A stretch of DNA of 54,952 bases from a virus (IMGVR_UViG_3300031269_000018:1-54952), one strand, 5' to 3'. Positions 18,120 to 33,234 are shown, counted from the stretch's first letter. The notes: generated from the sequence alone by a model not told the origin. Translations and numbers: made by a program.

Positions 18120-20006
18120 TCATAGCTCCTTTAATTCTGACCAACGAGAACCTACTTGCACATCCCATGTTAGCGGTACAGTTGGTGTATAGCCCCACCA
18201 TTTGCCGTAATCCATTTTGTTAAGCATTTCACGGCACTCAATAAGACGTGAGTTTGGGACGTCGTTTTTTACTTCGTAGTGTAATCCGTCATGTAAATCA
18301 AACCAAAACTCAAACTCTGGAAAGTATTTTCCGATTTCTTGTATTGCTAAGTCTTTCATATCAGCGCCACTGCCTTGGATCGGAAAGTTTATAGCTGATG
18401 ATTCAGTCGACCATTTACTTTCTTTATCCCAAAAATCTAATTTATAGCGACGACCTGCCATTGATTCGGCATAGCCTGTTAGTTTGCCTTTGTTTATAGC
18501 ACTCGTCCAGTATGGCTTAATTTTCTTAAAGCCTCTGTGAAACGTATTTTGCCAGCTTGCGGCCGTCATAAAATCAACGTTCATTCCGTATTGAACCCGC
18601 GCTTGAACCCGCAACTTTTTTACGCCAATTCGATAGTTATTTGCTAGATTTGTGAATTTGCCTTGGTAGCGATAACCATGATCCCCGGTAATAGCAGTGT
18701 TTCCTTCTTTCTTTCCTTTCATGAAATCGTCGTAATGGATCCCTGATATCTCAGAGCCAGTGAACGAGTGAAAATCTTTTCCCATTACAAATATCTCAGT
18801 CATATTCTCATCGCCTGAGTAGTCTGCTATCAATCGAGACTCTTGACCCGCTGCATCGTACTCTACGTGCTTGTATCCCGGTCTGGGGCGTATCAATGCG
18901 CGAAACTCTTTTTGTCTTGGCCATTGATGTAATGCCATACCAATTGAGTATTTTTTCTTGATCTTGCTTGTGTATGTCATCCTACCGGTATAAGTGGAGA
19001 ATATTCTGGCTTGCGGGTGCAGTACTTCACTGCCAAGGTACTCTCGAGATTTTAAAGGTGATTGAATGTACTTTGTAAGTTGAGTATTTAATTGGCGCCA
19101 TCTTAGGATCTCAATAACATGGTCATCATCATCTGCAAGATAGGTCAACGCCGCTTTATCGGTGCTCGGTGCTTTGGTTTTTTCACTGAAACTTTTAGGT
19201 GTCAGCTTCCATACATCGTAGAGTAGGTTTGCCATTTGTTTCGGGCTGCGCAGTATTTTACTGGGGATCCAACCATTCACGCCAAGTCGAACTACTTTTG
19301 ACTGCTGATGATTATGCACGCCCAGTTTGTATTCGATGGTAGCCATCTCTTCTGTGATCGCAGGGGTGATATCATCAATAAGCGAGAAGTCTACCATTAC
19401 ACCGCGCTCGTATGACTCTGCAACTGGTATCAAGCTTGCCATTGAGATCATACATGATTTCTGCTGTTGAGGCGTGAGGCGTGAGTATGCAACGGTAGCG
19501 ACTCGTGCTGTCATAATGGCGTCAAGCTTTGCTCTGGTTTCCCAGTACTTGCCTTGAGCGCCTGCATGCACTTCTTGCTCTTTCATTTTTACAAACGCAA
19601 CCGCCCAAGGCTCGTCTTTGAAAAAGTACTTCACCGCATCTGCTAGTGACCAGGCAGGGCGTCGTTCTTTTCGCTGTGAGTTTGAAAGCCATTTCCAAAT
19701 AATCCCGGCGTCGACCCACTTTATTTTCTTCACTTCTTCTACATAACCAGCCGCAATTAAAAATGAAATGTCAAACGTGAGGTTATAGCCAGTGAGTGTC
19801 TGACCTTCTAAGCTTCTTAGTAACGCCCGGTACTGTGTCTTCTTTTGTACAACAAACGCTTCTCCGGATGCTTTTCCAACCGCTATATTCGTGATCATGG
19901 CAGTGCCTTCCCGTACTCTCCATGGTTGCAGTGCATATTCTTGAGGGGCATCTCCAGTAGGTGCTGTCTCAATATCCAATGCAGGGATATCTAGTTTGTT
20001 TGACAT
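18120..20006 (-). CDS. polA: Family A DNA polymerase with 3'-5' exonuclease
   Basis: LDIET, YNLTFD, TGR, DAAGQESR (A), RYQGKFTNLANNY (B), NFPIQGSGAD, LHDG (C). Confidence 0.92.
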   Translation of the reverse strand: MSNKLDIPALDIETAPTGDAPQEYALQPWRVREGTAMITNIAVGKASGEAFVVQKKTQYRALLRSLEGQTLTGYNLTFDISFLIAAGYVEEVKKIKWVDAGIIWKWLSNSQRKERRPAWSLADAVKYFFKDEPWAVAFVKMKEQEVHAGAQGKYWETRAKLDAIMTARVATVAYSRLTPQQQKSCMISMASLIPVAESYERGVMVDFSLIDDITPAITEEMATIEYKLGVHNHQQSKVVRLGVNGWIPSKILRSPKQMANLLYDVWKLTPKSFSEKTKAPSTDKAALTYLADDDDHVIEILRWRQLNTQLTKYIQSPLKSREYLGSEVLHPQARIFSTYTGRMTYTSKIKKKYSIGMALHQWPRQKEFRALIRPRPGYKHVEYDAAGQESRLIADYSGDENMTEIFVMGKDFHSFTGSEISGIHYDDFMKGKKEGNTAITGDHGYRYQGKFTNLANNYRIGVKKLRVQARVQYGMNVDFMTAASWQNTFHRGFKKIKPYWTSAINKGKLTGYAESMAGRRYKLDFWDKESKWSTESSAINFPIQGSGADMKDLAIQEIGKYFPEFEFWFDLHDGLHYEVKNDVPNSRLIECREMLNKMDYGKWWGYTPTVPLTWDVQVGSRWSELKEL

Positions 20007-20009
20007 GGT

Positions 20010-22376
20010 TTATTTGACCTCTTTAAGTTGGGGTGGTGCTACCTCTTTTTTTAATAACATGCATTCTGAGCGTGTCAGCTCATGACGTATTGCTTCTGGA
20101 TTACTTTCAATCCAAGCTTTGTGATTTCTAACGCTTCTTGGTCTGTGTCTCCACCTCACTCCTTTGCCGTCGGTTCTTAGTTGACCATCGTATGCTTTGT
20201 TTGAAAGACGTGTCATAACCTCAATCACTTCTTGCTTTATCGCGTTGTTCAATGGCGTTTCAGAATGCTCAGCAACAAAATTCGTGACCAGTACATTGCT
20301 TGTTATATCAGCGCCGAATGGACCGTCTCGAGCATCAATTGCATCAGCGATCAACCCTTCTAAGTACGAACGACTGTTCTCAATTAAGTCGGCTTTGGAC
20401 TTCGTTTGAGGAGGCGGTTTATTGTATGCAAACTGAGTTAGATCACGCTGAGCGCACCACGCTAATATATGAGATAAATTATCACCCTTGCGCTGCCACT
20501 CCCAAATTTCGTGGTAATACTTAGCGTCAAGAACACCGTCAATTCTATGCACCCAAAAACGACGATCTCCACCTCTTATTTGCGCAGCATCTTCGTTGTT
20601 CGAGAACAAGATCACATTGCAAAATATTTGCTCTGACTGCTCCTTTTTTCCTTTTGTGTTTATTTCTATGTGAGATTCAGAAATAATATGATTTAGTTTT
20701 TCAACAACACCGCCTCTGAGGTCTTTGTGCATTTCATCAATGCAAACTAATGTTTTGTTTTGCAAAAATGAGTTGAACTGATTGGTTAGACGTTCAGGCA
20801 AGATCATAATGGCATTCTGCTTTCCAACTAACTTGACCATCAATTCATAGATCCAGCCTTTTCCTGCACCTGGGTCTGATATAAGCAGAGGAACCCAAGG
20901 GATCCTTCGCTCTGGGTGTATAATTGTACAAGCAAACCAATCCATAAATAAGAACCGATCATCGTCATTCGGAAATAGGAATTCCATATGTGCTAAAAAA
21001 GGTTTTATCTTACCAACATCAATTTCGGGCGCTGGGACTATCTGGGCTGCTTTATATAAGTTCCAATAATCTGAGTCTTCGAGATTTACTATGGCTTCTT
21101 TGCCCGGATAGTAAATGGTGTCGCGAACACTTTTTCTGTTATGACATTCGAGCCACTTTTTACTGAGAAAAGCTTTTCCCCCAACTTTAATGTTTTGAGT
21201 CGCGTTTTTCCAGTCTTGGAGCGAGTACATACTGTGTTCTCCGCTGAGTTTGGTATCAATAACTCTCGATCCTTCGTCAACGTAGCGAAATCGTTCGATC
21301 CATGCATCGAGTGTATTCTCACCACCTGATATATCTTCATAGATCACCTCCTCAGCTTTAGTGCCTTTGTTGATAACAGACTCAATTGTTGTATCGGCAG
21401 TGATGGGTGGCGGTGGTGGCGGTGCATTTGCAATTTTTTCTTCTTGTGCTTCTTGTTCGCGCTGGTCGCAAAATTTATCAACGCAACCTAGTACTTCATA
21501 TTCGAGGGTGGCTTCGTCAATTGGCTCTGCATCGGATGGGCATAGATCCACATTCATACGAATTATCTCAGCTTTGATAGCCGCAGCACTGTAGCCATCT
21601 GATACCATCTTGCCTATGTGAGCCACCAGCAACGGTGTTCTGTTGCCCGGCGCTAATACAACTGGCTCTTGATAGCTGTCGGATATGTCTAACCCAAACG
21701 CATCGGCTTCCATCGCTCTGGCTGTCATTTTTCTAGGTTTTGCGGATATGGCATGATGAGTAGGTATTGCTTTTGCAGCACAATCGTATAAATGTTGTGT
21801 TGCGTAGTCACCACCAAACGCTTGCACTGTAACCATAACAGGTTCTTTTTTCTGATGTGGAAAACCTGGGACTCTCAACACTCTGTCTAAATTATTTACA
21901 TGAGGGTCCGTATTGAACTGTATAGCGAGTTGTTTTTGCATTGATTTAAACTGATCGAGCTCACAATCAACCACTCGCCAGTACACATGGAATTTGCCTT
22001 TGCTCGACGTTACGATCATTGAGGGTCTTGGCATGTAGTCAATCAATGATTTCATTGTCTCTACGGAAGTGTCAGGTTTGTCAGCGTCAACAAACAATGC
22101 ACGTATGCCAGTAATTGCATTTAATGAGCGTTTCAACCCTTCGTTTATTTGTACAAATACACCGGCGCCTCTTTCTGACAGTGATTTGAGTGTGTCTTCA
22201 TGCTCATCAAATGATCCTATTAATACTCGTGCAAGTGGATCAATAGGTTTTCCTAAGGCATTTTTTTTAAACGTTGCTTTTAATTCTTTTTTGTCAGTAA
22301 ACGTCTGGAACACATATGGTCCGTCTCCCAGCTCGCGCAAAAACGCTGTGGCTTGAGAGAGATCATACATTCCCAT
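20010..22376 (-). CDS. Primase-helicase: RepB/AEP-type primase, helical PriCT-like linker, C-terminal P-loop helicase (DUF5906/SF3-like)
   Basis: FVDAD, SSKGKFHVYW, RVLRVPGFPHQK; PGAGKG Walker A, CIDE Walker B, FSN, DRRF. Confidence 0.88.
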   Translation of the reverse strand: MGMYDLSQATAFLRELGDGPYVFQTFTDKKELKATFKKNALGKPIDPLARVLIGSFDEHEDTLKSLSERGAGVFVQINEGLKRSLNAITGIRALFVDADKPDTSVETMKSLIDYMPRPSMIVTSSKGKFHVYWRVVDCELDQFKSMQKQLAIQFNTDPHVNNLDRVLRVPGFPHQKKEPVMVTVQAFGGDYATQHLYDCAAKAIPTHHAISAKPRKMTARAMEADAFGLDISDSYQEPVVLAPGNRTPLLVAHIGKMVSDGYSAAAIKAEIIRMNVDLCPSDAEPIDEATLEYEVLGCVDKFCDQREQEAQEEKIANAPPPPPPITADTTIESVINKGTKAEEVIYEDISGGENTLDAWIERFRYVDEGSRVIDTKLSGEHSMYSLQDWKNATQNIKVGGKAFLSKKWLECHNRKSVRDTIYYPGKEAIVNLEDSDYWNLYKAAQIVPAPEIDVGKIKPFLAHMEFLFPNDDDRFLFMDWFACTIIHPERRIPWVPLLISDPGAGKGWIYELMVKLVGKQNAIMILPERLTNQFNSFLQNKTLVCIDEMHKDLRGGVVEKLNHIISESHIEINTKGKKEQSEQIFCNVILFSNNEDAAQIRGGDRRFWVHRIDGVLDAKYYHEIWEWQRKGDNLSHILAWCAQRDLTQFAYNKPPPQTKSKADLIENSRSYLEGLIADAIDARDGPFGADITSNVLVTNFVAEHSETPLNNAIKQEVIEVMTRLSNKAYDGQLRTDGKGVRWRHRPRSVRNHKAWIESNPEAIRHELTRSECMLLKKEVAPPQLKEVK

Positions 22377-22578
22377 TTTTCTCCATGTAATCGGCTAAGA
22401 TAGTGTCAACGACAGAAGAGCGATTGATTGATTTGTTTTTTGGAAATTTGAGGCGTAACGAATCAGCGTATCTTGATAGCCATTCATCTGTGCTTTCTTT
22501 AATAGTAAAGGAACACACTTTTTTGTTGTCGCGTTTAATGCCTTGGTTCAAAGCTTCGGCTGAGAGAATTCGTGCCAT
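22363..22578 (-). CDS. Ribbon-helix-helix-type transcriptional regulator
   Basis: KKVCSFTI strand, helix, NRSSVVDTIL helix; first gene of replication operon. Confidence 0.65.
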   Translation of the reverse strand: MARILSAEALNQGIKRDNKKVCSFTIKESTDEWLSRYADSLRLKFPKNKSINRSSVVDTILADYMEKNGNV

Positions 22579-22610
22579 TGGGTGTTGCCTTTGGATGTAT
22601 TAGGTTGTGT

Positions 22611-22640
22611 AATATGATACATCTTAATTGCATTGTCAAC
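22611..22640 (-). promoter_or_regulatory. sigma70-like promoter of RHH/replication operon
   Basis: TTGACA-17-CATATT on minus. Confidence 0.55.
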
Positions 22641-22748
22641 CGACTTTATAAATGTATATTTAAAAATACAGTCTTGACAATTTATTTATTTAGGCAGGTA
22701 TAAAGTTGAGGTCACCGGAAGTGCGGTAGTTTCGATAGAGTGGGGATG

Positions 22749-22790
22749 AAAAAACCCCATAAAAGGAACTAACTTGGTCTTTTATGGGGG
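22749..22790 (-). terminator. Intrinsic terminator ending putative sRNA
   Basis: CCCCATAAAAG...CTTTTATGGGG stem followed by T6 on minus. Confidence 0.8.
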
Positions 22791-22821
22791 AACCACAACA
22801 ACACTGACACTGGAGATGTCA
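22749..22821 (-). ncRNA. Putative ~70-nt small RNA carrying anti-RBS sequence UCUCCAG
   Basis: Bounded by near-consensus promoter and intrinsic terminator, no ORF; 11-nt perfect complement to leader of ORF 8558-9022. Confidence 0.6.
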
Positions 22822-22826
22822 CTGCC

Positions 22827-22855
22827 TTTATAATCATTTTTATACTTGATGTCAA
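22827..22855 (-). promoter_or_regulatory. Strong sigma70 promoter for putative sRNA
   Basis: TTGACA-17-TATAAA on minus. Confidence 0.8.
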
Positions 22856-22911
22856 TAGACAACACAGACTTGAATTCAATAGGTCTTATTGTGTCATTGG
22901 ATTGTGGATAC

Positions 22912-22934
22912 AAAAAAGCCCCGGTTAAGGGGCT
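22912..22934 (-). terminator. Intrinsic terminator ending early accessory operon
   Basis: AGCCCC-TTAACC-GGGGCT followed by T-run on minus. Confidence 0.85.
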
Positions 22935-22961
22935 GTCGTGTTGTATTTTTATGTTGTTATT

Positions 22962-23141
22962 TCATGGCAATCTCCTTTTATTTTTGGCATCCTCCCGATC
23001 AATCGAGGTCTTTATTTTATACGCTATATATCCACATGGCAGCGCAATCAGGATCGCGGTTGACACTGCTAGACTCAAAACAATACAGGCAAACATTGTG
23101 ATGGTCAATACGGCAACCAAGGCCAGTTTGTAGTACCTCAT
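22962..23141 (-). CDS. Small membrane protein, 59 aa (missing from ORF track)
   Basis: MRYYKLALVAVLTITMFACIVLSLAVSTAILIALPCGYIAYKIK...; ATGA coupling; ends just before terminator. Confidence 0.7.
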   Translation of the reverse strand: MRYYKLALVAVLTITMFACIVLSLAVSTAILIALPCGYIAYKIKTSIDREDAKNKRRLP

Positions 23142-23410
23142 GCTTGCACCGTTACGTTATAGTCGATAACTACATTTGATACTTCAATGATTAGTTCTTT
23201 GGAAGGTACATACCATACCGCGCCCGTATTAATGTTAAGTATCTCTATGAATTGTGCTGGCCTTTTTGCTATTGACACACTGACATGTACTTTCATGTGC
23301 AAACCGCCTTCACGTTCAAATACATCTCCGACTTTTATGTCTCCAACCGTTAATTTCTTTGGCGAAGGTAGTTTATTGCGCACTATTTTAAAGTTTTTAT
23401 CTTTGCTCAT
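23138..23410 (-). CDS. Hypothetical protein
   Basis: 90 aa, ATGA coupling, GAGG RBS. Confidence 0.7.
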   Translation of the reverse strand: MSKDKNFKIVRNKLPSPKKLTVGDIKVGDVFEREGGLHMKVHVSVSIAKRPAQFIEILNINTGAVWYVPSKELIIEVSNVVIDYNVTVQA

Positions 23411-23634
23411 GATTCTGTCCTCATGTGATATGTGTCTAAGTTAATTGGATGAACGGGGATCATGCCTTGGCTAAACTTTCGTGCATGATATTTCGCCGCG
23501 TCCTTGCTGTGTTGAGTTACCTCACCTTTGCGAATATCCTTTATTTCGCAACGATCTTTCACATCTTGTTTTACAATCGTGACCACTTGACCACAAATCA
23601 TTTGCTCTTGAATTGATATAAACGGCTTTTCCAT
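23407..23634 (-). CDS. Hypothetical protein
   Basis: 75 aa; preceded by hairpin-RBS element. Confidence 0.7.
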   Translation of the reverse strand: MEKPFISIQEQMICGQVVTIVKQDVKDRCEIKDIRKGEVTQHSKDAAKYHARKFSQGMIPVHPINLDTYHMRTES

Positions 23635-23705
23635 ATAATTTCCTTACTTGGTTGCTTGCGGATTATTCCGGCATTAACCACTCGTATATAATGGCTAATA
23701 ACAGA
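23635..23705 (-). repeat. Early hairpin-RBS element, copy A
   Basis: TCTG-T-TATTAGCCATT-loop-AGTGGTTAATG-C-CGGAATAATCCG...AAGTAAGGAAATTAT-ATG. Confidence 0.85.
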
Positions 23706-24209
23706 TCAGTCTTGGTTTGCCTCTACACCACTACTTGTGCCTTTTGAAGTCCATACCATTGATAGAGCATACCCTTTCTTGCATGTTGCTAACCATTGGC
23801 TATATGTTGCTGTCATACTTCCATACGCCGATGCATCGTTATCTGTAAGCCACTGAGCTAATTTCTCCACAGTGTCAAATGCCGGGCTTATTGGTGTACC
23901 TTCTGTACAGTCTTCATACATTCGCATCTGAGTTTTTTCATTTTCATCCCACTTGGGCATATAATCCGACTCGACTGGTTTACCTCCTGAGTACTTTTTG
24001 AAACTGATGTTTTCATATTCTTCAAGCTTTGGCTCCCATTCAATATTTTCTTCGTAACTTTTTGTATATCCTTCAAACCATTTTTTTCTTTCTAGTTCCC
24101 ACTGCTGCCTTTCAGCTTTAAAATCACGGTTTAAAAGTGGTATGTATTCACCTGAAGCATCCAAAGGGTGCTCCCAGTTCTCTGGTACGTTTCTTATTTC
24201 TCTACCCAT
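23706..24209 (-). CDS. Conserved phage hypothetical protein
   Basis: MGREIR.VP..WEHP...YE...EGTPISP.F pattern; flanked by repeat copies A and B. Confidence 0.8.
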   Translation of the reverse strand: MGREIRNVPENWEHPLDASGEYIPLLNRDFKAERQQWELERKKWFEGYTKSYEENIEWEPKLEEYENISFKKYSGGKPVESDYMPKWDENEKTQMRMYEDCTEGTPISPAFDTVEKLAQWLTDNDASAYGSMTATYSQWLATCKKGYALSMVWTSKGTSSGVEANQD

Positions 24210-24285
24210 TTTATAATTTCCTTACTTGGTTGTTGTTTCGGATTATTCCGGCATTAACCACTCGTTTCGAATGGCTAATAACAGA
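24210..24285 (-). repeat. Early hairpin-RBS element, copy B
   Basis: Near-identical to copy A; differences in loop and CAA-rich spacer. Confidence 0.85.
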
Positions 24286-24480
24286 CTACACCTGGATGTT
24301 AAGGGGGCATATATCAATTGCTCGCATTGTTCGAGTGTATTGACTGCCCAGGAACTTGTAGTAGCATTGTTTTGTCATCCCTGTGACTTTCTCGCCTGTG
24401 TAGAATGCGGTTCCTGCGTTTGCTGTGGTTGCAAAAACTAAGGTAATAAAAACGACTAGTGCTAGTTTTACAGATTTCAT
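24286..24480 (-). CDS. Small exported protein (signal peptide, two Cys)
   Basis: MKSVK-hydrophobic-ANA signal; mature ~42 aa with two Cys. Confidence 0.75.
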   Translation of the reverse strand: MKSVKLALVVFITLVFATTANAGTAFYTGEKVTGMTKQCYYKFLGSQYTRTMRAIDICPLNIQV

Positions 24481-24554
24481 TTTGTGTTGCCTCTTGTTGT
24501 TTCGGATGATTCCGACAGTAGCTACTTAAATCAAATAGCTACTAGCAGATCATT
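24481..24554 (-). repeat. Early hairpin-RBS element, copy C
   Basis: ATGATCTG-C-TAGTAGCTATTT/AAGTAGCTACTG-T-CGGAATCATCCGAAACAAC..GAGG. Confidence 0.85.
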
Positions 24555-24559
24555 TGTTG

Positions 24560-24796
24560 TCAGTCTTTTTTAATTGTAAATCGCGCTCTCCCTTCTTGGT
24601 TGCGACACCACACCGTAAACTCACCATGCATTTTAATGTTACGATTAATCAATTCGTGGTTTCTAGTACTAATTTCAGTGTAAATGTGGTACTTAGTAAA
24701 TCGGATCGCCTCTTCTAAACTTTTAAATTCGAAATCTTTTTTAAATGTGTTTCGAGTACTTGTTGGGTTTACCAGTGATAATTCAATGTTGTACAT
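24560..24796 (-). CDS. Hypothetical protein
   Basis: 78 aa, GAGGT RBS, coupled. Confidence 0.65.
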   Translation of the reverse strand: MYNIELSLVNPTSTRNTFKKDFEFKSLEEAIRFTKYHIYTEISTRNHELINRNIKMHGEFTVWCRNQEGRARFTIKKD

Positions 24797-24996
24797 TATG
24801 ACACCTCAAACTTATCTTTTACAGACTGGTTGTAGCACCCTGCACATAAAGTTACTACTTCGTAACCAGCAGTCATTTTACCATCAGTTTCTTCACAAAA
24901 TGAGCATACCGTTTCATGCACCACATCGGCTAATTCACCACACTTATCACACTGCGAACACCAACGCTCTCTAAGTTCTTCTCTTGTTGGTCTCAT
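24796..24996 (-). CDS. Small Cys-rich (zinc-finger-like) protein
   Basis: Multiple CxxC pairs; ATGA coupling. Confidence 0.65.
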   Translation of the reverse strand: MRPTREELRERWCSQCDKCGELADVVHETVCSFCEETDGKMTAGYEVVTLCAGCYNQSVKDKFEVS

Positions 24997-25250
24997 ATAT
25001 TTACCTCAATATTATTTTGTTTTAAAAGAGTACTTAAATAGAACCCTGTGTTTTCTGGATCTTCAGCCATCACAGCAACTGTGTTTTGTATTGACCAGCT
25101 GATGCCGCGATCATCTAGTAAGTTGGCCCAGTGACCAAAGTTTGTATGAATGCCTTTTGTGTAGTGACAGCTTAGTGCAAAAAAGAAGCTTTGCAAATGT
25201 AGGTACTGTGACCTGTTTACTACCTGGTTGTGTGATTTTTCAAGTGCCAT
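24993..25250 (-). CDS. Hypothetical protein (start revised to MALEKSHNQ)
   Basis: ATG 25250 follows TAAGTAAGGTAATTACA RBS of repeat copy D. Confidence 0.7.
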   Translation of the reverse strand: MALEKSHNQVVNRSQYLHLQSFFFALSCHYTKGIHTNFGHWANLLDDRGISWSIQNTVAVMAEDPENTGFYLSTLLKQNNIEVNI

Positions 25251-25291
25251 TGTAATTACCTTACTTAGTTGTTTCGGATGATTCCGGCATT
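25251..25291 (-). repeat. Early hairpin-RBS element, 5'-truncated copy D
   Basis: ATGCCGGAATCATCCGAAACAACTAAGTAAGGTAATTACA; upper stem absent. Confidence 0.8.
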
Positions 25292-25671
25292 TCAAAATTT
25301 TTGCTGTTAAGAAGGTGCAGCCAGCTGATCGCGTCGTCAAACGTTGATAGACTGGTTAAATGAGGGTGCATAAGCTCTAGATCCGAAAACTCACCTGATT
25401 CAATCGCAGATCCTCTTCGGTTACTGCTCTCAGCTAACCATATCGTTTCAGAGACGTACTTTGTTAAATTAGTATCGAGCTCATCAGCAAAAAACGGACA
25501 CGCCTCATGAAAAGAAAAACCCTCAGGCAGGTTAAAAACCATGTGCCAGCCAATTACGCAATGAGCTGCGCCGCAACCTTTTAATGTTATCCAATCATCC
25601 ATGATAAAAAGGTTAGTTTCAATTTGCTTCGCTTTTTCTAGTGTTTTGATTAGGTCGTCTAAGATTTTCAT
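25261..25671 (-). CDS. Hypothetical protein
   Basis: 136 aa, GCGAAHCVIGW motif; C-terminus reads into repeat copy D. Confidence 0.7.
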   Translation of the reverse strand: MKILDDLIKTLEKAKQIETNLFIMDDWITLKGCGAAHCVIGWHMVFNLPEGFSFHEACPFFADELDTNLTKYVSETIWLAESSNRRGSAIESGEFSDLELMHPHLTSLSTFDDAISWLHLLNSKNFEMPESSETTK

Positions 25672-25674
25672 ACT

Positions 25675-26040
25675 CTAGTACTCCAGTAAATTAGGTATGT
25701 CGCCTATAAGTTCAAAATAAAATGTATATGTGCATAACCACAAGCGCAAATCACCTTCTTTCCATTTATTCATTTGATGATTATTTGCTGCCTGGCCTGT
25801 TTTATCTTCATACACTACAACTTCAACCCTGTTGACCTCATCTTCAAGATAATAAGGATTAACGATAATGTCGTTTTTATCGCACCCGGTTAAATCTGCA
25901 ATTTCAATTTTTATATCTTCTAAAGTCGCGGCAATGATTTCAAATTTTATTTTGTGTTCAAACCTTCCCATTATACAACCATCTTCAAAGCGATCTTCTT
26001 CCGAAAACTTACAAACGGATTTACATATTAATTTTTTCAT
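25675..26040 (-). CDS. Hypothetical protein
   Basis: 121 aa, ATGA coupling. Confidence 0.7.
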   Translation of the reverse strand: MKKLICKSVCKFSEEDRFEDGCIMGRFEHKIKFEIIAATLEDIKIEIADLTGCDKNDIIVNPYYLEDEVNRVEVVVYEDKTGQAANNHQMNKWKEGDLRLWLCTYTFYFELIGDIPNLLEY

Positions 26041-26678
26041 TTTGTGATCCTTATGATTTTAGTATTTACCTTGGCATAACTAAACGTGTTGTTGCCGAGT
26101 TCTTTCAATATGTCATGCTCAAGCTTTTTGTATGTGATTGGGACCAGGCAAATAGCCAAGCCGCCAGGTTTAAGACATTTAAAAACCTGATCCATGTGTG
26201 CAACGATATTTTTAAATGGTGGGTTACAGATGATCCGGTCTTCGCCGCTATATATATCACCTGGTCTGTGCTTGAATTCATCGAAATCCGTTAAAAAATC
26301 GCCTTGGTTGATACTTACAAGGGTATATTCAAACCGGTTTTGCATGTGCTCAACTAACTTTTGATGTTTTTCGATAGTATTAATACATCCGCTCATAAAC
26401 CCAGCTCGCAGCATCGCCGCCACTAGCTGCCCGGTTCCGGCGTGCGGTTCTAACACACCGTGAGCCGCTTCGTTGATAGTGGCGTCTTTATAGTCTAAAT
26501 ATTCAACCATTAGATCAGCAACGTGATCCGGTGTCGTGTGGCATTCAGTGCCCCGGTCAACCGTAAGCAGCTTAGGCGCATTTATATTGACAATCGGGAT
26601 CGGGATATCAAAATCAGGACGTTTGCACGTCAACGGCTTTTTAGGGCGCGTAAAACAGGTGTTATTCATGATTATCAT
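26037..26678 (-). CDS. Class I SAM-dependent (N6-adenine-type) methyltransferase
   Basis: TP..VA..M, VLEPHAGTG, GDFL, NPPF, LKPGG. Confidence 0.85.
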   Translation of the reverse strand: MIIMNNTCFTRPKKPLTCKRPDFDIPIPIVNINAPKLLTVDRGTECHTTPDHVADLMVEYLDYKDATINEAAHGVLEPHAGTGQLVAAMLRAGFMSGCINTIEKHQKLVEHMQNRFEYTLVSINQGDFLTDFDEFKHRPGDIYSGEDRIICNPPFKNIVAHMDQVFKCLKPGGLAICLVPITYKKLEHDILKELGNNTFSYAKVNTKIIRITK

Positions 26679-26859
26679 CTCTAGTGCAAACGCTTTTCGC
26701 GCTGTGCATTACACAACTTGAAAACTCTTGCATCGCTCCGCGTAACGATAGTGAATGTATTTCTTGCAATCCGTATTTGATTGTAAAAAGGGTTTTAGTT
26801 TTTTGTATTAGTGTGACCGGGTGATCTAACCCCTTTGACGCTGTAATTAATATATTCAT
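26662..26859 (-). CDS. Hypothetical protein
   Basis: 65 aa, coupled. Confidence 0.6.
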   Translation of the reverse strand: MNILITASKGLDHPVTLIQKTKTLFTIKYGLQEIHSLSLRGAMQEFSSCVMHSAKSVCTRDDNHE

Positions 26860-27092
26860 TATTTACGATCCTCTGTTAGAATTTGAACCGGGCCTTTGTC
26901 TTTGTAGCTCCAGATAAAAGGGATCTCATAACTCAGGTCCCCGGTTACCTGGTCGATAAATGTGATCACATTACACTTGAATTCGTAATTTTTTATGATC
27001 TCGGTTGTCTCCGGTGTCACTTTTATATAAATATCACTGCACCAATTTGACAGCGGCAAGCCTGTAGCTATTAGTTGATCAAGTATTTTCAT
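26859..27092 (-). CDS. Hypothetical protein (start revised to MKILDQLIA)
   Basis: ATGA overlap with upstream stop at 27089-27092, GAGG RBS. Confidence 0.65.
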   Translation of the reverse strand: MKILDQLIATGLPLSNWCSDIYIKVTPETTEIIKNYEFKCNVITFIDQVTGDLSYEIPFIWSYKDKGPVQILTEDRK

Positions 27093-27532
27093 ATTGAAAC
27101 CCTCTTTTGTAAGTGAATGAAGAAACCAAAAACGCGTGAAGCGTTTGCAGGCTTTGCATATTTTGTTATCTTTGCCCAAGTGTATAAAAGTTCAAGCTCT
27201 GACTGTTCAAGCTGATTAGGATCTTTATTAAAGTCAATATGCATACTTAAAACACCCTTGGCCATTGCGCGGGTGGGCTTGGTTGGGTACTGTATTTTTC
27301 CGTGTGTGTTATGCGCGTCAATATCTAAACGAGCGCAGCACTCGCGGCTTGTGCCACATTCAAGGTTGCATTGACACGTTTTTGATCCATCTTCTTCAAT
27401 AAAATATAGATCAACCGTTTGCCACTCGTAATGATTGCCCGCTTTATAAAAGATATTAGAGCCACTGTGCGCTAATGTTTCATTTGATAGATCGATATCA
27501 AGTTTTAAAATTTTAGGTGTTATACGTTTCAT
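27089..27532 (-). CDS. Hypothetical protein
   Basis: 147 aa; preceded by divergent hairpin-RBS element. Confidence 0.7.
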   Translation of the reverse strand: MKRITPKILKLDIDLSNETLAHSGSNIFYKAGNHYEWQTVDLYFIEEDGSKTCQCNLECGTSRECCARLDIDAHNTHGKIQYPTKPTRAMAKGVLSMHIDFNKDPNQLEQSELELLYTWAKITKYAKPANASRVFGFFIHLQKRVSI

Positions 27533-27600
27533 TTTTGTAATTTCCTTACTTTAGTTAACATCACATAACCAACTTTAAAAGCTGGCTATAGGATAGCAAA
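27533..27600 (-). repeat. Early hairpin-RBS element, divergent copy E
   Basis: TATAGCCAGCTT/AAGTTGGTTATG stem + AAGTAAGGAAATTAC RBS; lacks CGGA box. Confidence 0.6.
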
Positions 27601-28986
27601 CTATATAAGCGCGATTTGTCCGGGCTTGGCGGTTTCTGGCATTTCGTGCACTTTACTGTCAGTTAAAAACACCGCTTTATAGTCGTAATCTGCCCGGCCA
27701 TATTTATCAACGCCCATTTTAACGAATCCGATCCGGATCCTAAACGTCTTGCATTTTGATAATATGGTGCTCTTGTGGTCGTTTCCGATCCCTTTGTACT
27801 GCTCTTTTGTAAGCTCTACTTGGTCAAGCTCTCGCGCTCTGTAGCCGCCTTGCCAGGTAACAGGTTGATCAGTCTTAAAGTTTAAGATAGGGATCGCAGC
27901 CTTAGCACTGGGGGCGCGTTTTGCTGGTACTTCATAACCAACTGACTGCATGAGCTCGCGCCATTCTTGATCGTCCAGCTCAAGATCACAACTGCTCGAT
28001 AAGTGAAGCGGCAAGCAAACCGAACTAGTGACGGTCCAGGCTTCGTTTTTTAACTCTGCTTTTGGTTTATCTGCGCCGTGGGCCCTCAAGAATGTTTGCA
28101 GCACTGCCGGAGTCAATGCACCGTCATACAATGGCACAATGGCAAGCTGTCCTTGCTCGTATGCTAAGCGGTTTAGAATATGGTTGATTATCCTTGCCCG
28201 TCTTTTGCTATTAATGCGTGCCGTGTAGATTTCCCGCAGTTTCTCAAGTGCTTGGTCTTCTGTGATCTCTCCTGACTCGATTTTATTATTAAGATCCAGG
28301 TTTCTAGTTTCATACTGGCCGCATAAGTTGTATGTGTAAGTCGTCTTTGATTCTGGCTTCATTTTGTTTTTGACGATATCGATTACATTCAAAGAATGCG
28401 CGGCGTCGTTGATCGCTCGTTGTTGATCGCGTAGGTCTTTAGATAGCGTCTTGATCCTGTTTGAGATGGTGCGCGTGTTGTTCTTGTGGTCTGCATGACC
28501 GATCACGCCTTTCGCCCTCCATACCCAATACCCCACGGCATCGGCTGTGTTGTGTGCGTTATCAATGGCACGCTCGATCTGTTTCTCTGTTTTCTTTGCT
28601 TTGCGTTCTGAATGATGGCCGCTTAAGATTGGTTGATTGTTGCCGATCCGCTGCATCAAGTCATTTGCTGCTAACTGGTAACCATGGCATTGATCCGATC
28701 TCTTTTGAGCCAAGAGAAGCAACCGATCCGCTTTTGCCTCTGCGCGTTCAACCATTGTTAAACCCTCGGGCATAATATCGCCAGCAAGAGCAAGACAAAA
28801 ATCCTCGTTATCAAGTGACCAGTAAGCGACGAACAGCTTTTGAACTGGCGCCCACTTCCACCCGCTTGACTTCAATGCGGACCAGTCTTCGGAGTCAATG
28901 CGGACCTCAGTGTAAATCCTTAGCTTATTGTCTTCGGGTGAATAAGTCGCGCTAAAATCTTCAGCGTTGTACTTGTCAATATTCAT
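27601..28986 (-). CDS. DUF3560-family protein (plasmid leading-region type)
   Basis: ATYSPEDNKLR..WKWAP.Q.LFVA N-terminus and QPILSGHHSERKA motif. Confidence 0.8.
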   Translation of the reverse strand: MNIDKYNAEDFSATYSPEDNKLRIYTEVRIDSEDWSALKSSGWKWAPVQKLFVAYWSLDNEDFCLALAGDIMPEGLTMVERAEAKADRLLLLAQKRSDQCHGYQLAANDLMQRIGNNQPILSGHHSERKAKKTEKQIERAIDNAHNTADAVGYWVWRAKGVIGHADHKNNTRTISNRIKTLSKDLRDQQRAINDAAHSLNVIDIVKNKMKPESKTTYTYNLCGQYETRNLDLNNKIESGEITEDQALEKLREIYTARINSKRRARIINHILNRLAYEQGQLAIVPLYDGALTPAVLQTFLRAHGADKPKAELKNEAWTVTSSVCLPLHLSSSCDLELDDQEWRELMQSVGYEVPAKRAPSAKAAIPILNFKTDQPVTWQGGYRARELDQVELTKEQYKGIGNDHKSTILSKCKTFRIRIGFVKMGVDKYGRADYDYKAVFLTDSKVHEMPETAKPGQIALI

Positions 28987-29061
28987 GTAATTACCTTACT
29001 TAGTTGTTTTCGGATGATTCCGACACTAGACCCTTAATAAAAGGCCTAGTGGCAGATCATT
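28987..29061 (-). repeat. Early hairpin-RBS element, copy F
   Basis: ATGATCTG-C-CACTAGGCCTTT/AAGGGTCTAGTG-T-CGGAATCATCCGAAAACAACTAAGTAAGG. Confidence 0.85.
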
Positions 29062-29155
29062 GCCCTAATAAAAACGCCAGTATAAAAAGAAGCCCTAACA
29101 CGTTAAACGCGATCACAAGGCCGATCAATAGTACTTTGATTAAACGCTGCATCAT
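29057..29155 (-). CDS. 32-aa single-TM hydrophobic peptide (missing from ORF track)
   Basis: MMQRLIKVLLIGLVIAFNVLGLLFILAFLLGQ; TAATG coupling, GGAG RBS; stop inside copy F. Confidence 0.65.
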   Translation of the reverse strand: MMQRLIKVLLIGLVIAFNVLGLLFILAFLLGQ

Positions 29156-29355
29156 TATGTGTTGCTCCAATCGTTGATATTGAAATCAGTGTCATAATGA
29201 TACGCATCAAGAAAAGCGCTCACATCATCAATGGTATACGCTTCAATCTCGCAATATGTCTGCGCCTGATCAATAACGCATTCGACTGGATAACCTGCGA
29301 TACGTAAATAATTGTTATAGTGTTGGTCTAACTGCTGGATCTCTTGTTCTCTCAT
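29155..29355 (-). CDS. Small acidic hypothetical protein
   Basis: 66 aa, TAAGGAAATT RBS. Confidence 0.65.
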   Translation of the reverse strand: MREQEIQQLDQHYNNYLRIAGYPVECVIDQAQTYCEIEAYTIDDVSAFLDAYHYDTDFNINDWSNT

Positions 29356-29385
29356 GGTCTTAATTTCCTTAAAACGTTGTTGTTG

Positions 29386-29619
29386 TTAGTATGTCTTTAC
29401 GACTTTAAAAGCTAGGTTTAGATCGCAACCGTCCCAATCACAGGATGTCATTTCACCATCAATACGAGCAAATACAACAAACTCGGCTATATCATCAGGC
29501 AAGTCGTCATTGCTACAACTAAAAGTAAAGTCATTGCAAATCGTATTTACTACACTGAATTTAATGACAGCGAAGTACAGAACACCGTTATATTGTATTT
29601 CTAAGTCGTTTATAATCAT
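29386..29619 (-). CDS. Small acidic hypothetical protein; first early gene
   Basis: 77 aa directly downstream of early promoter. Confidence 0.65.
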   Translation of the reverse strand: MIINDLEIQYNGVLYFAVIKFSVVNTICNDFTFSCSNDDLPDDIAEFVVFARIDGEMTSCDWDGCDLNLAFKVVKTY

Positions 29620-29708
29620 TTGTGTGATCTCTCTGTTTAGTTGCTAAGTCGCTAAGTATTTATTCAAGTCGTAACGCGGTGGCTGATGCTCTTGATTGCT
29701 TAATTCCT

Positions 29709-29737
29709 AACTTAACAAAGATGTTAAGATAAATCAA
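29709..29737 (-). promoter_or_regulatory. Early promoter with palindromic operator
   Basis: TTGATT-17-TAAGTT with extended TG; CTTAACA-AAGA-TGTTAAG at 29711-29728. Confidence 0.65.
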
Positions 29738-29928
29738 GTAAATCGGCACACCTATTTGTAATTAGAGGGATGAGTCAAGGCTGAGTCAAGAAATAGCAGG
29801 GCTACAGGGTGCGCGGTTGCTGGGTTTCTTTGTTCCGTTGGCTCGGTGCGGCACAGGTCAGGAGGGTGAGACGGTTTCCTTGATCTTAGTATCTGCGTGG
29901 CTTGTAGCTCTGTTACTTAACATTATTG

Positions 29929-30010
29929 TATATATATATATATATATATAGTGTATGTATTATGTATATATGGTGGCTGTGGTGGCTGTGGCTGTGGCTG
30001 TGTGTGTGTG
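29929..30010. repeat. Microsatellite block: (TA)11, GGCTGT-type repeats, (TG)n
   Basis: Directly visible low-complexity tract in non-coding region. Confidence 0.9.
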
Positions 30011-30115
30011 GTCACCAAAGCTGGAACATGGTGAGTCAGTGAGTTAAATGGCTACAGACCACGCCAGGTAAGGGTTAGAGCGGTTCAGGGGGGGTAAGTC
30101 GGTAATCTTGGATTT

Positions 30116-30184
30116 GTACAATAAACGTACATTAGTCAACCTTTTTTCTAATTTGCATTGACAGCAGTACAAAATACGTACGAT
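30116..30184. promoter_or_regulatory. Back-to-back TTGAC boxes each followed by GTAC-N7-GTAC
   Basis: GTACAATAAACGTAC 30116-30130 and GTACAAAATACGTAC 30167-30181, each 3 nt from a TTGAC(A/T). Confidence 0.5.
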
Positions 30185-30244
30185 TTACTTCTTCAAGGGG
30201 TATTTCAAGGTCACCAGTTACTTGAACAAGTCAGATCATGGCTA

Positions 30245-30530
30245 CCTACTGACTACAAAGTCACTCGGACACTAAGCCTCTACCCTTGGCCGACAGCGCA
30301 GAAATTAAGCCAGCCTTGACCGTCAAGTCATGAAGCGACGCCAACACATAGTTACCTGTCAACTTACTTTAAGGTGTGCCGAGTGAGTCAGTACTGAAGG
30401 ATCGCAGACACGACAACGCTTTGTAAGCTGGCTCAGGGCCTAAGAGGGTGAGTCAGTAGCAAGATCGTCGTTATTTTGCTGCTTCCTTACTTCGATCCTT
30501 CGCTGCTACATAAAAACGCGGTAGCAAATC
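30245..30530 (+). ncRNA. Candidate structured RNA or ssDNA element upstream of terminase genes
   Basis: Several nested complementary segments found by eye; no ORF. Confidence 0.35.
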
Positions 30531-30685
30531 ACGCTTAGAAAAAAGATTTCCAGTACCTTTTTGCTTTTCCGTTTTAGGATCTCGGTTTCTGAGAGCTGCG
30601 ATCGCCAGGCGGGGGTTTAGTCTATATTATATATACATACAGTAAGCTTACACACAGAACCAAAAAAATAAAAAACCCAAGGTAC

Positions 30686-30714
30686 TTGACTGCTATTACG
30701 AAAGCTATTAAATT
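30686..30714 (+). promoter_or_regulatory. Possible promoter of packaging/late operon
   Basis: TTGACT-17-TAAATT just upstream of terS candidate. Confidence 0.45.
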
Positions 30715-30733
30715 ACATCTATTTAATTAAGCG

Positions 30734-31555
30734 GTGACACGTATGATTTCAGACTTCATGGCGAAGAAACGAATTGACTGGATAATTGACCCAAGGGTTG
30801 CTGATATCGATGGAACTTGGATGCCTGGTAGCAACGATGTAACGCGAGTATGGGATGTGTGTTCTGCGAGAGAAAGAGAGGCGATAGTTGCATTTATCTC
30901 ATGTGATACTTACGGCGAGGTGATACAACGGATAACAAGTATGTCACTTCAAGCATGTGTTACGCTGTTACAGACAAACAAAAAAGTAGTGTTAGCGGTG
31001 GTTGCAGGTCGCTTGTGTAATTTGCCATCGGATACTGCGCGTTATATGTATTTAGACACGTTGATGTCAACGGTGCATCAGAGGGAAATTCATCGAAACG
31101 AAATCAGTTCAATTATTAAAACGGACAAAGACCATTTAATTGAGTTATCGCAGAAGCTTAAAATTGATGGTGATGGGAAGCGAGATATTTTAAAGCAATT
31201 GGTAGCTTATGGCATGCAGACTAAATTACATGAGGAGGCAGAGCTTGACCATGCGACTGGTTTGGTCAGTAGGCCAGCGGTGTATACATTAGCGGATCCG
31301 AGAATGGCGTTGTTGTCTGTTCAAGAGTTGAATAAGATGGACCATGAGTACAGTGAGGATGAGTCAAGTACATCAAGTACTGAGTCTCAAGCTGAAAGAA
31401 TTAGACGTTTAAGACAAACGGCGCCAAAAGAAATTTTAAAGACATTGAATGACACAGCGAACCGAGAGGCGAAGAAATTGAATGGGATTGCCAAGCAGAT
31501 ATCTAAGCGACAAATGAGTGATCTAGAGAAACTTGAAACAGGTGCTGACGAATGA
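30734..31555 (+). CDS. Probable terminase small subunit
   Basis: Position immediately upstream of and ATGA-coupled to TerL; no diagnostic motif; start uncertain. Confidence 0.5.
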   Translation: MTRMISDFMAKKRIDWIIDPRVADIDGTWMPGSNDVTRVWDVCSAREREAIVAFISCDTYGEVIQRITSMSLQACVTLLQTNKKVVLAVVAGRLCNLPSDTARYMYLDTLMSTVHQREIHRNEISSIIKTDKDHLIELSQKLKIDGDGKRDILKQLVAYGMQTKLHEEAELDHATGLVSRPAVYTLADPRMALLSVQELNKMDHEYSEDESSTSSTESQAERIRRLRQTAPKEILKTLNDTANREAKKLNGIAKQISKRQMSDLEKLETGADE

Positions 31556-33126
31556 ATGCGTCTGAGAAGTTACAATTTGAAAGAGAAAAAGCCCAGGCTG
31601 AGATAGATCAATTTGTGTACTTATGCATGCACGACTTTGAATTTTTTGCTAAAACATGCTTGAAAATTAAGACCAAAACAGATGGTATACAGAATTTAAA
31701 ATTTAACAGAGCGCAGAATTACCTGCAGAGTGTCGTTGATGACATGACAAAAGAGCATGGAAAAGTGCGAGTGATCATTGTCAAAGGTCGTCAGCAAGGG
31801 CTTTCAACATGGGTACAAGCCAGAGGTTATTGGAAAACCAGTCAAAACGAGGGTGTTAAGGCGTTTATTTTGACGCATGAGAACCAAGCAACGAAGAATT
31901 TGTTTGAGATGACCAAGCGATATCACGACAATGCCCCGGTGGATGTAAAACCGTTAGTGAAAAAATCGAACAGGGAAGAGTTAGAATTTCATGAGATTGA
32001 TTCTCAGTACTCAGTTGGTACGGCAAAGACAGGTGATACAGGTCGTTCTCAGACAATACAGTTTTTTCACGGCAGCGAAGTTGCGTATTGGCGAGCAGCA
32101 GAAGATATTTCATCCGGTGCGATGGAAGGCATACCAGAAGCACCTGGTACAGAAGTCTACTTAGAAAGCACAGCTGCAGGTTTCGGTGGTTACTTTCATT
32201 CGATGTGGCAAAATGCAATCTACCCAGGCGAAGAGATACACAGCAAATGGAATGGGTATATTCGGGTGTTTGTACCATGGACCTGGCAGGAAGAATATCG
32301 AGAGCCGCTTAGAGATGCAATGGAATACACTCGAGAAGAAATTGAGTTGAAGCGACTGCATAAACTTGATGATGAGCAGATCCAGTTTCGTCGTATGAAG
32401 ATCGCAAAAATGAAAAACGATGTTTCCCGGTTCCAACGAGATTATCCGCTTACACCTGAGGATGCATTTAACTCATCTCTAATCAATGTGCTGATACAAC
32501 CAAACAAAGTGATGAAGGCTAGGGCCAAAGGCAGATCGAAATACTATCAACCAGTGGGCGTGATGGTATTGGGTATCGACGTAGCAAGGGAAGGCGATGA
32601 TTCTACTGCGCTAGTGCTAAGGCAAGGCCGGATCATGCACTGGTATAAACGCTTCAATAAGTTAGATAACATGGAAGTTGCGGGGATTTGCATTAACATC
32701 ATTAGGCAATATCGCGTTGACTTTGGCTGCATTGACTCGACAGGAGGCTACGGCGCCGGGGTCTATGATCGCATGGTAGAACTAGGTTATGGCAGTAAAA
32801 TAACTGCAGTGAACTTTGGTAGTAAAGCATTCGATGACGAACACTATAAAAACCGTAGAGCCGAGATGTGGGTTGGGATACGAGAGTGGTTGGACGAGGG
32901 TGCGCAGATGCCTGATCGGGATGAAATACAACTTGATCTATGCGCGGTAACCTACAAACACGACAGCACTGGAGAGCGCCTTCAGCTTGAATCAAAAGCC
33001 GATATGAAAAAGCGCGGGATTAAGTCTCCTGACATCGGTGATGCATTAGCTTTGACATTTGCTAGACCTAGAGTAAACTTAAGCGGAAGAGGCGAGTCAT
33101 TTGATCCAGAAGAGTACTTTAACTAA
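31552..33126 (+). CDS. terL: Terminase large subunit
   Basis: KGRQQGLST, SEVAYW, LESTA, GIDVAREGDD, SPDIGDALALTF. Confidence 0.93.
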   Translation: MNASEKLQFEREKAQAEIDQFVYLCMHDFEFFAKTCLKIKTKTDGIQNLKFNRAQNYLQSVVDDMTKEHGKVRVIIVKGRQQGLSTWVQARGYWKTSQNEGVKAFILTHENQATKNLFEMTKRYHDNAPVDVKPLVKKSNREELEFHEIDSQYSVGTAKTGDTGRSQTIQFFHGSEVAYWRAAEDISSGAMEGIPEAPGTEVYLESTAAGFGGYFHSMWQNAIYPGEEIHSKWNGYIRVFVPWTWQEEYREPLRDAMEYTREEIELKRLHKLDDEQIQFRRMKIAKMKNDVSRFQRDYPLTPEDAFNSSLINVLIQPNKVMKARAKGRSKYYQPVGVMVLGIDVAREGDDSTALVLRQGRIMHWYKRFNKLDNMEVAGICINIIRQYRVDFGCIDSTGGYGAGVYDRMVELGYGSKITAVNFGSKAFDDEHYKNRRAEMWVGIREWLDEGAQMPDRDEIQLDLCAVTYKHDSTGERLQLESKADMKKRGIKSPDIGDALALTFARPRVNLSGRGESFDPEEYFN

Positions 33127-33234
33127 GCATAAAACAAGTAACTTAACTAGGTGAATAACATGAGTGAAATACTAATTTATATGTCCAGTCGTGCTAGTTA
33201 GAAATTAAATTGATTGTAGAGAGAGAGAGCTATT

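Follow-up and report, generated by a model that had tools for sequence, protein, structure and literature searches.

The early genes of phage T7 are made as one precursor RNA of about 7000 nucleotides (nt) that carries five processing signals for RNase III, an enzyme whose ideal substrate is a helix of 22 base pairs (bp), many of its cellular substrates having about 20 or fewer, and which, at a target with a mismatch or loop, cuts a single strand and leaves a stabilizing 3′ hairpin (PMC3867540). According to PMC1540722, cut and loop must be separated by 11 bp or more, a U-A and a U-G pair make the best distal box, which adjoins the loop, and in the natural T7 site R1.1 a U-C pair stands next to the scissile bond. 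Clustered hammerhead ribozymes flank single genes in prophages, ardA in one triple arrangement, and have been read as processing long phage transcripts (PMC3088659), while the PeSLs of T4-type phages consist of a strong sigma-70 promoter and a terminator stem-loop (PMC2839356; PMC4122927). Here, we describe a family of six related elements in the early region of a virus recorded in IMG/VR as IMGVR_UViG_3300031269_000018, the whole 54,952-base record being referred to below as the window. We read these elements as intercistronic modules for RNA processing or stability that end in a standard translation start, are probably cut by host RNase III and also serve as recombination joints, a combined reading to which we give a probability of roughly 0.55.

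An original prediction, made from the sequence alone, had placed six copies on the mRNA strand, and all six were confirmed at those positions, on the minus strand and within the early operon. A covariance model built from seven full copies and run over the whole window with filters off recovered the same sites as its top six matches, all on the minus strand and scoring from 93.6 to 21.7 bits; these are followed by plus-strand echoes of copy 6 (18.9 bits) and copy 3 (17.2 bits), and the rest reach 14 bits at most. A scan for shape only (lower helix of at least 4 bp, 1x1 mismatch, upper helix of 10-14 bp, loop of 3-8 nt; both strands) found five hairpins in the 54,952 bases, exactly the five full copies and all on the minus strand, against 0-2 matches (mean 0.4) in each of 20 mononucleotide shuffles. 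The same sites stand out by letters: CGGAATNATCCG has five matches, all on the minus strand and in copies 1, 2, 3, 4 and 6, where shuffles lead one to expect 0.48 and none of 100 reaches five, and the five exact matches of AAGTAAGGWAATTA are copies 1, 2, 4, 5 and 6, with none elsewhere in the window. With up to two mismatches allowed, AAGTAAGGWAATTA has eight matches (1.41 expected from shuffles; 0/100 reach eight). Beyond the window, two further copies occur in the related virus G001 (IMGVR_UViG_3300037343_000205) and two in L032, a metagenome contig of 1908 bases.

In the mRNA sense, the stop codon of the gene upstream, or a point no more than 8 nt beyond it, marks the start of a full module, and in several copies that stop is the UGA within the conserved 5′ flank AAUGAUCUG. 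A 4-bp lower helix (UCUG/CGGA), a pyrimidine mismatch, an upper helix of 11-13 bp and a loop of 3-7 nt make up the hairpin, on the 3′ side of which stand a 4-bp mini-hairpin (CGGA-AUMA-UCCG), an A/C-rich unpaired spacer and a strong Shine-Dalgarno sequence (UAAGG), with the ATG a few bases on. For the upper stems, 11-12 bp had first been given. Certain positions do not vary: the mismatch between the helices is a pyrimidine pair in 9/9 full copies (U/C in four, C/U in five, no other type), the second pair from the base of the upper helix is A-U in all nine, and one pair below the loop-closing pair there is again in every case a U-A, with a U-G beneath it in eight. The claim that the non-Watson-Crick pairs are G-U only needs correction, since each full copy has, besides its wobbles, this pyrimidine-pyrimidine mismatch.

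The mini-hairpin, whose stem sequence is invariant in the nine copies that have one, is worth -2.8 kcal/mol alone. It competes with the lower helix for CGGA, and the two-way switch that had been proposed on this ground agrees with the folding energies: the upper helix is combined with the lower helix in one form and with the mini-hairpin in the other, and these nearly isoenergetic forms differ by 0.4-1.8 kcal/mol in 7/7 copies. In copies with an AUCA loop (five of the seven tested), four extra pairs (AUGA/UCAU) extend the lower helix to 8 bp and make this long form 2.8-3.1 kcal/mol better; RNAalifold, given the alignment alone, likewise returns the long form, as a consensus helix of 20 pairs. 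The region of the ribosome-binding site (RBS) is unpaired in every predicted fold.

Copy 6, a full copy (28987-29061), precedes the DUF3560 gene (27601-28986) with a hairpin at 29019-29056 (4 bp, C/U mismatch, 12 bp, 4-nt loop), a mini-hairpin at 29011-29022 and the RBS AAGTAAGGTAATTA at 28988-29001, and it scores a fold z of -4.52 and 93.6 bits in the covariance model. A strongly hydrophobic open reading frame (ORF) of 32 amino acids (aa) at 29057-29155 (minus strand), conserved in G001, has its stop codon within the 5′ flank of this copy. Copy 5 (27533-27600; z -4.09; 21.7 bits, E 8e-4) lies upstream of a 147-aa gene (27089-27532) and has a hairpin at 27559-27595 (4 bp, C/U mismatch, 12 bp, 3-nt loop) and an RBS at 27538-27551. 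Copy 4 (25251-25291; z -0.56; 38.5 bits), upstream of an 85-aa gene (24993-25250), is truncated: it has no long stem and consists only of the mini-hairpin (25275-25286), the spacer and the RBS (25253-25266). Copy 3 (24481-24554; z -3.99; 77.4 bits) has its hairpin at 24511-24549 (4 bp, C/U mismatch, 13 bp), its mini-hairpin at 24503-24514 and an RBS that differs from the others (AAGAGG), upstream of a 64-aa gene (24286-24480). Copy 2 (24210-24285; z -3.57; 90.6 bits) stands upstream of a 167-aa gene (23706-24209), with the hairpin at 24247-24285 (4 bp, U/C mismatch, 13 bp), the mini-hairpin at 24239-24250 and the RBS at 24214-24227, and copy 1 (23635-23705; z -1.71; 89.0 bits) upstream of a 75-aa gene (23407-23634), with the hairpin at 23667-23705 (4 bp, U/C mismatch, 11 bp, 7-nt loop), the mini-hairpin at 23659-23670 and the RBS at 23636-23649. 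The stems of copies 1 and 2 are identical letter for letter. Two general statements of the original prediction need amendment here. Intergenic placement is true of five copies and fails for copy 4, which lies within the last codons of an ORF at 25261-25671 whose stop is the TAA in AAGTAAGG; the full-copy layout with CGGAAT..ATCCG is general except in copy 5, which is without that mini-hairpin motif and whose lower helix is UAUC/GAUG instead of UCUG/CGGA.

The hairpin is preserved by compensatory change, and in a manner specific to the mRNA strand. In a MAFFT alignment of the seven distinct full copies, 97.3% of the cells assigned to pairs are paired, compared with 25-47% when the partners are slid, and both partners have changed in 6/16 pairs; 23 of the 112 cells are G-U or U-G wobbles and 3 are unpaired, and none of 500 shuffles reaches the observed covariation score. 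The view that the upper stems vary in sequence and keep their pairing is in this way upheld, as is the view that the action is at the level of RNA, since the mRNA-sense strand folds better than its complement by 6.2-12.0 kcal/mol in 8/8 hairpins. Conservation, too, is higher in the element than in the coding DNA on its flanks. All 78 of its bases are the same in the window and G001, while the coding DNA that follows is identical at 256/284 (28 differences), and simple arithmetic puts the chance of no change in 78 positions at the flanking coding rate at about 3 in 10,000. The L032 elements are 79-80% identical to copy 6 as DNA, the adjoining first gene being 52% identical as protein, and blastn between the window and L032 finds, besides the elements, one match only, a TA-repeat stretch of the upstream non-coding region. 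We regard it as almost certain that the RNA structure is under selection, and a strand-specific, selected RNA structure joined to a standard translation start is strongly supported.

A role for the module in processing or stability is likely, and RNase III as the cutting agent is in our estimate an even call. In the proposed mechanism, host RNase III would cut at or beside the mismatch, about 12 bp below the loop. The upstream mRNA would retain a 3′ hairpin that shields it from exonucleases, and the downstream mRNA would begin with the mini-hairpin followed by an unstructured, standard translation start; a 5′ hairpin slows mRNA decay. In this way, neighbouring genes or gene blocks would be expressed without depending on one another. 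We consider RNase III the likeliest agent because the 20 predicted pairs and the 11-13 bp from loop to mismatch match the rules known for the E. coli enzyme, with which the near-loop U-A and U-G pairs may also agree. As to helix length, the upper helix has 11-13 bp in 5/5 hairpins of the window and the 8-bp lower helix that completes the 20 pairs is favoured in 5/7 copies; as to the target, the U/C or C/U mismatch between the helices of all nine full copies stands where a mismatch at the cut is called for. The invariant U-A and nearly invariant U-G near the loop may correspond to the distal box, in a register and orientation that we infer; the rules for the enzyme also ask for a proximal box without antideterminant G-C pairs. 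A search for an RNase III domain in the window found none, the same search being positive in eight genomes used as a control. On the strength of these rules and by analogy, cleavage of the module by RNase III is plausible.

A distant relative bears on whether cleavage is the function at stake. L054 (IMGVR_UViG_3300003691_000076), whose primase is 38% identical, has a repeat family of its own in the early-region gaps upstream of the primase, and a regular-expression search finds seven type II hammerhead core motifs there (L054:2330-6613, plus strand). Each repeat runs in the order stem II strand, GAAA, stem III hairpin, GUC, stem I hairpin, CUGAUGA, stem II strand, and the Rfam Hammerhead_II model scores four of the motifs at 36.5, 30.9, 30.5 and 25.1 bits against a cut-off of 37. 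Each motif lies close behind a stop codon, with a conserved RBS (UUUAGGAGAUAAA) and an ATG 15-23 nt on. An arrangement just like this one was reported by Perreault et al. 2011 (PMC3088659). An equivalent early-region slot would thus hold a hairpin in the window and a self-cleaving ribozyme motif in L054, and because L054 appears to fill that slot with ribozymes of this kind, cleavage would be favoured over mere stabilization. The cut of a type II hammerhead leaves the stem III hairpin at the 3′ end of the upstream RNA and the stem I hairpin at the 5′ end of the downstream RNA, which is the layout that the original prediction had proposed for the products of the hairpin module. Further features were seen in other distant relatives. 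Xanthomonas phage Xp15 (NC_007024.1) has one complete type II hammerhead core, found by the same kind of pattern, at about 400-452 on the minus strand between gp02 and gp01. L053, with a primase 37% identical, has a hairpin of the same build as those of the window (5 bp, 1x1 mismatch, 11 bp) right behind a stop codon at L053:574-611 (plus strand) and, in its early region, a tRNA gene at L053:6999-7070 (plus strand).

The elements also mark places at which gene content changes. In the early stretch shared by G001 and the window, G001 differs by one insertion, which consists of an element and a 60-aa gene; the window element matches both G001 copies (query 6677-6762 matched twice), and the homology starts at base 1 of the element, the three preceding bases already differing. 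The extra 60-aa gene has no similarity to the gene that follows copy 3. In L032, the genes after the conserved first gene differ from those of the window and are bounded by elements, the two of them flanking an ardA-like anti-restriction gene (L032:1126-1656, plus strand; phrog_2059, E 7.7e-21) that has no counterpart in the window. Copy 4, for its part, resembles an element that has lost its 5′ half and been joined to the upstream ORF, the scar of a break within the element. The G001 insertion at an element, the different genes in L032, the apparent scar in copy 4 and the identical stems of copies 1 and 2 fit exchange through the repeated flanks, as with PeSLs: these conserved sequences would act as patches of homology at which accessory early genes are gained, lost and exchanged. 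A role as cassette boundary, which the original prediction had assigned to the elements, agrees with the G001 and L032 junctions and is moderately supported, and it is somewhat probable that the modules are recombination joints for accessory early genes.

Several points weigh against the reading as processed and exchanged modules. The RNase III rules applied are those of E. coli, and the host enzyme may differ; sites of this type can moreover be dispensable, as T7 itself is able to grow in the absence of RNase III (PMC6938266). The 8-bp lower helix is confined to AUCA-loop copies, which leaves the helix of copies 1, 2 and 5 with no more than about 16 pairs, and the hairpin and the mini-hairpin each occur alone, in copies 5 and 4, respectively. 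The whole family comes from three genomes and its paralogues share ancestry, so that the shuffle controls overstate significance, and related sequences can beat shuffles without selection. The stem types amount to about five independent ones: copies 1 and 2 share one, copy 3 shares another with the additional copy of G001, copy 6 a third with its counterpart there, and the pair in L032 a fourth, while copy 5 has its own. In the alignment of ten copies fitted to the covariance model, 98.0% of cells are paired and double changes occur in 10/16 pairs, counts that the fitting biases towards structure. As regards exchange, the early-region sequence common to the window and its relatives is short and the sample small, and the forecast that gene content in relatives would change at the elements, which the G001 insertion and L032 bear out, does not extend to the second of the two indels that separate the window from G001 (window 33128-36569), as this one lies at no element.

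Among the other explanations, the simplest is that the hairpin is a passive barrier or insulator that undergoes no specific cut, blocks 3′-to-5′ exonucleases after random cleavage downstream, like intercistronic REP-type hairpins, and keeps the translation start free of upstream structure. REP/malE-malF is the precedent for an intercistronic hairpin as exonuclease barrier, and the hairpin directly behind the stop codon, the RBS region unpaired in all predicted folds and the roughly 16-pair helices of copies 1, 2 and 5, short for RNase III, all fit such a role. A mere barrier has no need, however, of a constant 11-13 bp between the loop and the U/C mismatch or of invariant U-A and U-G pairs near the loop, and the self-cleaving motifs in the equivalent slot of L054 point to cleavage as the selected function, so that we think this explanation unlikely while giving it real weight. 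Less probable still is a protein-binding operator, the mini-hairpin or the long hairpin being bound by a phage or host protein for joint control of the translation or decay of early genes, in the manner of T4 RegA, the gp32 and gp43 operators or a boxB/N-type site. The invariant stem (9/9) of the mini-hairpin, which in copy 4 persists by itself at a distance of 8 nt from the downstream RBS motif AAGTAAGG, speaks for it; the weakness of the mini-hairpin alone, its absence from copy 5 and the lack of any recognized RNA-binding protein among the early genes, most of which have no family, speak against it. An operator is compatible with a processing module and does not exclude processing.

The remaining candidates fare worse. 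A DNA-level site that folds in single-stranded DNA, whether an attC-like recombinase site, the target of a homing or nicking enzyme or an N4-type hairpin promoter, would account for a structure kept while its stem sequence varies and for sites at cassette boundaries, as with attC, and G-T pairs are tolerated in folded DNA. Yet all copies lie in the mRNA orientation, tied to stop codons and RBSs and confined to the early operon, no RNA polymerase domain was found in the 2387-aa protein encoded at one end of the window, and the tyrosine recombinase family PF00589 has no match in the window, with a control positive in 14/14 genomes; an attC-like site (attC sites being marked also by R''/R' core sites and extrahelical bases) is rejected for want of an integrase, an N4-type hairpin promoter for want of a polymerase domain in that 2387-aa protein, and a DNA-level function in general is very improbable. 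A search of the window with PF00940 also gave no match, and its control was silent as well, which makes it uninformative. A terminator or attenuator, like the T4 PeSLs, would equally be a stable stem-loop between genes, but no stem is followed by a U-tract, the terminator scan lists 22934-22917 and none of the elements, and there is no conserved sigma-70 promoter within them from which transcription could restart; an intrinsic terminator is rejected on the first of these grounds, and we hold the whole idea to be the least probable of those considered. Promoters within the elements are rejected too, as 28 promoter-like sites occur in 21500-31000 where 23.4 are expected, and the single one that overlaps an element (copy 2, 9/12 matches) is not conserved. 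Nor do the elements belong to a known RNA family, Rfam giving no match in the window at the gathering threshold and only two irrelevant ones at E values up to 10 in 22500-30000, and they are no hammerhead or other known self-cleaving ribozyme (no type II core pattern in the window, no Rfam ribozyme match). It is conceivable, at long odds, that the module cleaves itself, as an RNA of a new type, or is cut by a dedicated phage nuclease so far unrecognized, and that it has taken the place of the hammerheads of the related phage, the nearly isoenergetic choice between lower helix and mini-hairpin allowing a ribosome that terminates at the embedded stop to trigger the cut.

The setting of the elements suits intercistronic processing modules within a single transcript. 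The window is a whole virus record with an estimated completeness of 97% and a G+C (guanine plus cytosine) content of 41.5%. Its minus-strand gene arm spans about 7174 to 29619 and encodes a primase-polymerase (20010-22376), a DNA polymerase A (18120-20006), a methyltransferase, exonucleases and a helicase; all six elements are located at the head of this arm. The structural genes, a large terminase and an SU10-type portal among them, occupy the plus strand from 30734, and a polyvalent protein of 2387 aa (14-7177, plus strand) carries an inorganic pyrophosphatase domain (PF18823) and an LPD38 domain. G001 lacks the 1079-aa protein with PKD and bacterial immunoglobulin (Ig)-like domains (33235-36474) and has 28 bases where the window has 33128-36569. 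The divergent early and structural arms are separated by a non-coding stretch of about 1.1 kb (29620-30733), which contains a long (TA)n run, CCACAGCC-type repeats and many TGACTCA(C/T)C-like words, all of which recur in G001 and L032, and which may be a replication origin or control region.

The limits of the early operon are drawn from two signals on the minus strand. Upstream of the first early gene, at 29700-29740, is a promoter-like site with TACTTGATTT at 29731-29740 followed by a TAAGTT-type -10, the hexamers having been picked by eye; judged by its sequence, it would be a functional promoter. Just past all six elements, at 22917-22934, an intrinsic terminator-like site with a 6-bp GC-rich stem and TTTTTTG marks the end of the operon. 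Because there is one promoter-like site at about 29700-29740 and one canonical terminator at 22934-22917, the best reading of the region from 22917 to about 29740 is a single early operon of some 6.8 kb, which the host polymerase apparently transcribes on the minus strand. The pattern TACTTGAYNT, which is absent from the elements, occurs a single time on the minus strand between 22900 and 29740, at the promoter-like site, and seven times in the window against 1.3 expected (12181, 15154 and 29731 on the minus strand, and others); three of its minus-strand copies lie upstream of the genes at 11627-12130 and 14551-15105 and of the first early gene, and it is probably the phage's preferred -35 region. 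The genes of the operon are mostly small and without a known family, the exceptions being the DUF3560 protein and a small methyltransferase-like protein.

Few further members of the family came to light. An exact-pattern scan of viral contigs returned G001 only, and one of metagenome contigs gave 38 loci of which one, L032, is genuine; a second viral pattern (93 stretches) and a genome-contig pattern (31 loci) yielded 123 candidates that were ranked by fold energy, and the best 15 examined held no members. Over 164 pattern-derived and distant loci, the covariance model exceeds 25 bits in L032 alone, and its match in L070 was rejected as coding sequence. No further members came from megablast of 20000-32000 against phages or from locus searches with the primase, the polymerase and the first early gene, and nine viral contigs from the alignment of primase homologues have no covariance-model match. 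The closest primase relatives (P0002-P0004) are 49-51% identical, and the early proteins gave one weak match to distant relatives from 21 queries. Two cultured phages with polymerases 33-35% identical, Xp15 and Acinetobacter phage HHU4, have no such repeat family in their early gaps.

Among the closest of the described systems are the RNase III signals of T7 (R0.3 to R1.3). In both cases intergenic hairpins punctuate one long early transcript made by the host polymerase, with five signals in about 7000 nt in T7 (PMC3867540) and five long hairpins in about 6.8 kb here. In both, moreover, the helix is interrupted at the expected cut by a mismatch or internal loop, and the T7 cut leaves a 3′ hairpin on the upstream RNA. 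The two differ in that there is no sequence similarity, the window elements having no Rfam match, in that T7 has a larger internal loop where the window has a 1x1 pyrimidine mismatch, and in that cleavage is predicted here. The window modules further add a competing mini-hairpin and a fixed RBS, and their stems vary between copies by compensatory change. The hammerhead clusters of phages and prophages (PMC3088659) share with them the placing of structured RNAs around single genes or short blocks of varying identity, ardA included, and are read as dividing long phage transcripts into mRNAs of gene length. The window elements, however, have no hammerhead core and, because nearly all of their conserved bases lie in plain helices, would need a protein nuclease. 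To the T4 PeSLs they are likened by repeated intergenic stem-loop motifs that occur on either side of small, variable early genes and coincide with the ends of indels between close relatives (PMC2839356, PMC4122927). That analogy, drawn by the original prediction, breaks down in composition, the elements having neither a conserved promoter nor a U-tract and working within one transcript.

Should the reading as cut-and-translate modules be true, phages outside the T7 group would also build early operons from standard units of this kind, and one slot could be filled in related phages either by a hairpin for a host nuclease or by a self-cleaving ribozyme, which would offer a testable reason for the puzzling hammerhead clusters of phages. 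It would further explain how small anti-defence genes such as ardA are swapped between phages with immediate expression, because the boundary element would carry RNA processing signal, RBS and recombination homology together. Synthetic RNA insulators place a ribozyme or nuclease site before a standard RBS, as in RiboJ and Csy4 sites, and there, as proposed here, a cut upstream of a fixed 5′ leader makes translation independent of the neighbours; those devices are engineered, whereas the window holds a natural family, and its modules are possible natural insulators for synthetic operons. The suggestion that the system is undescribed is true of this family as far as our searches reach, the literature search being limited in its reach, and not of the kind, which is known from the T7 RNase III sites and the phage hammerhead clusters. 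What appears to be new relative to both is the competing mini-hairpin, the fixed RBS and an apparent interchangeability with ribozymes across related phages.

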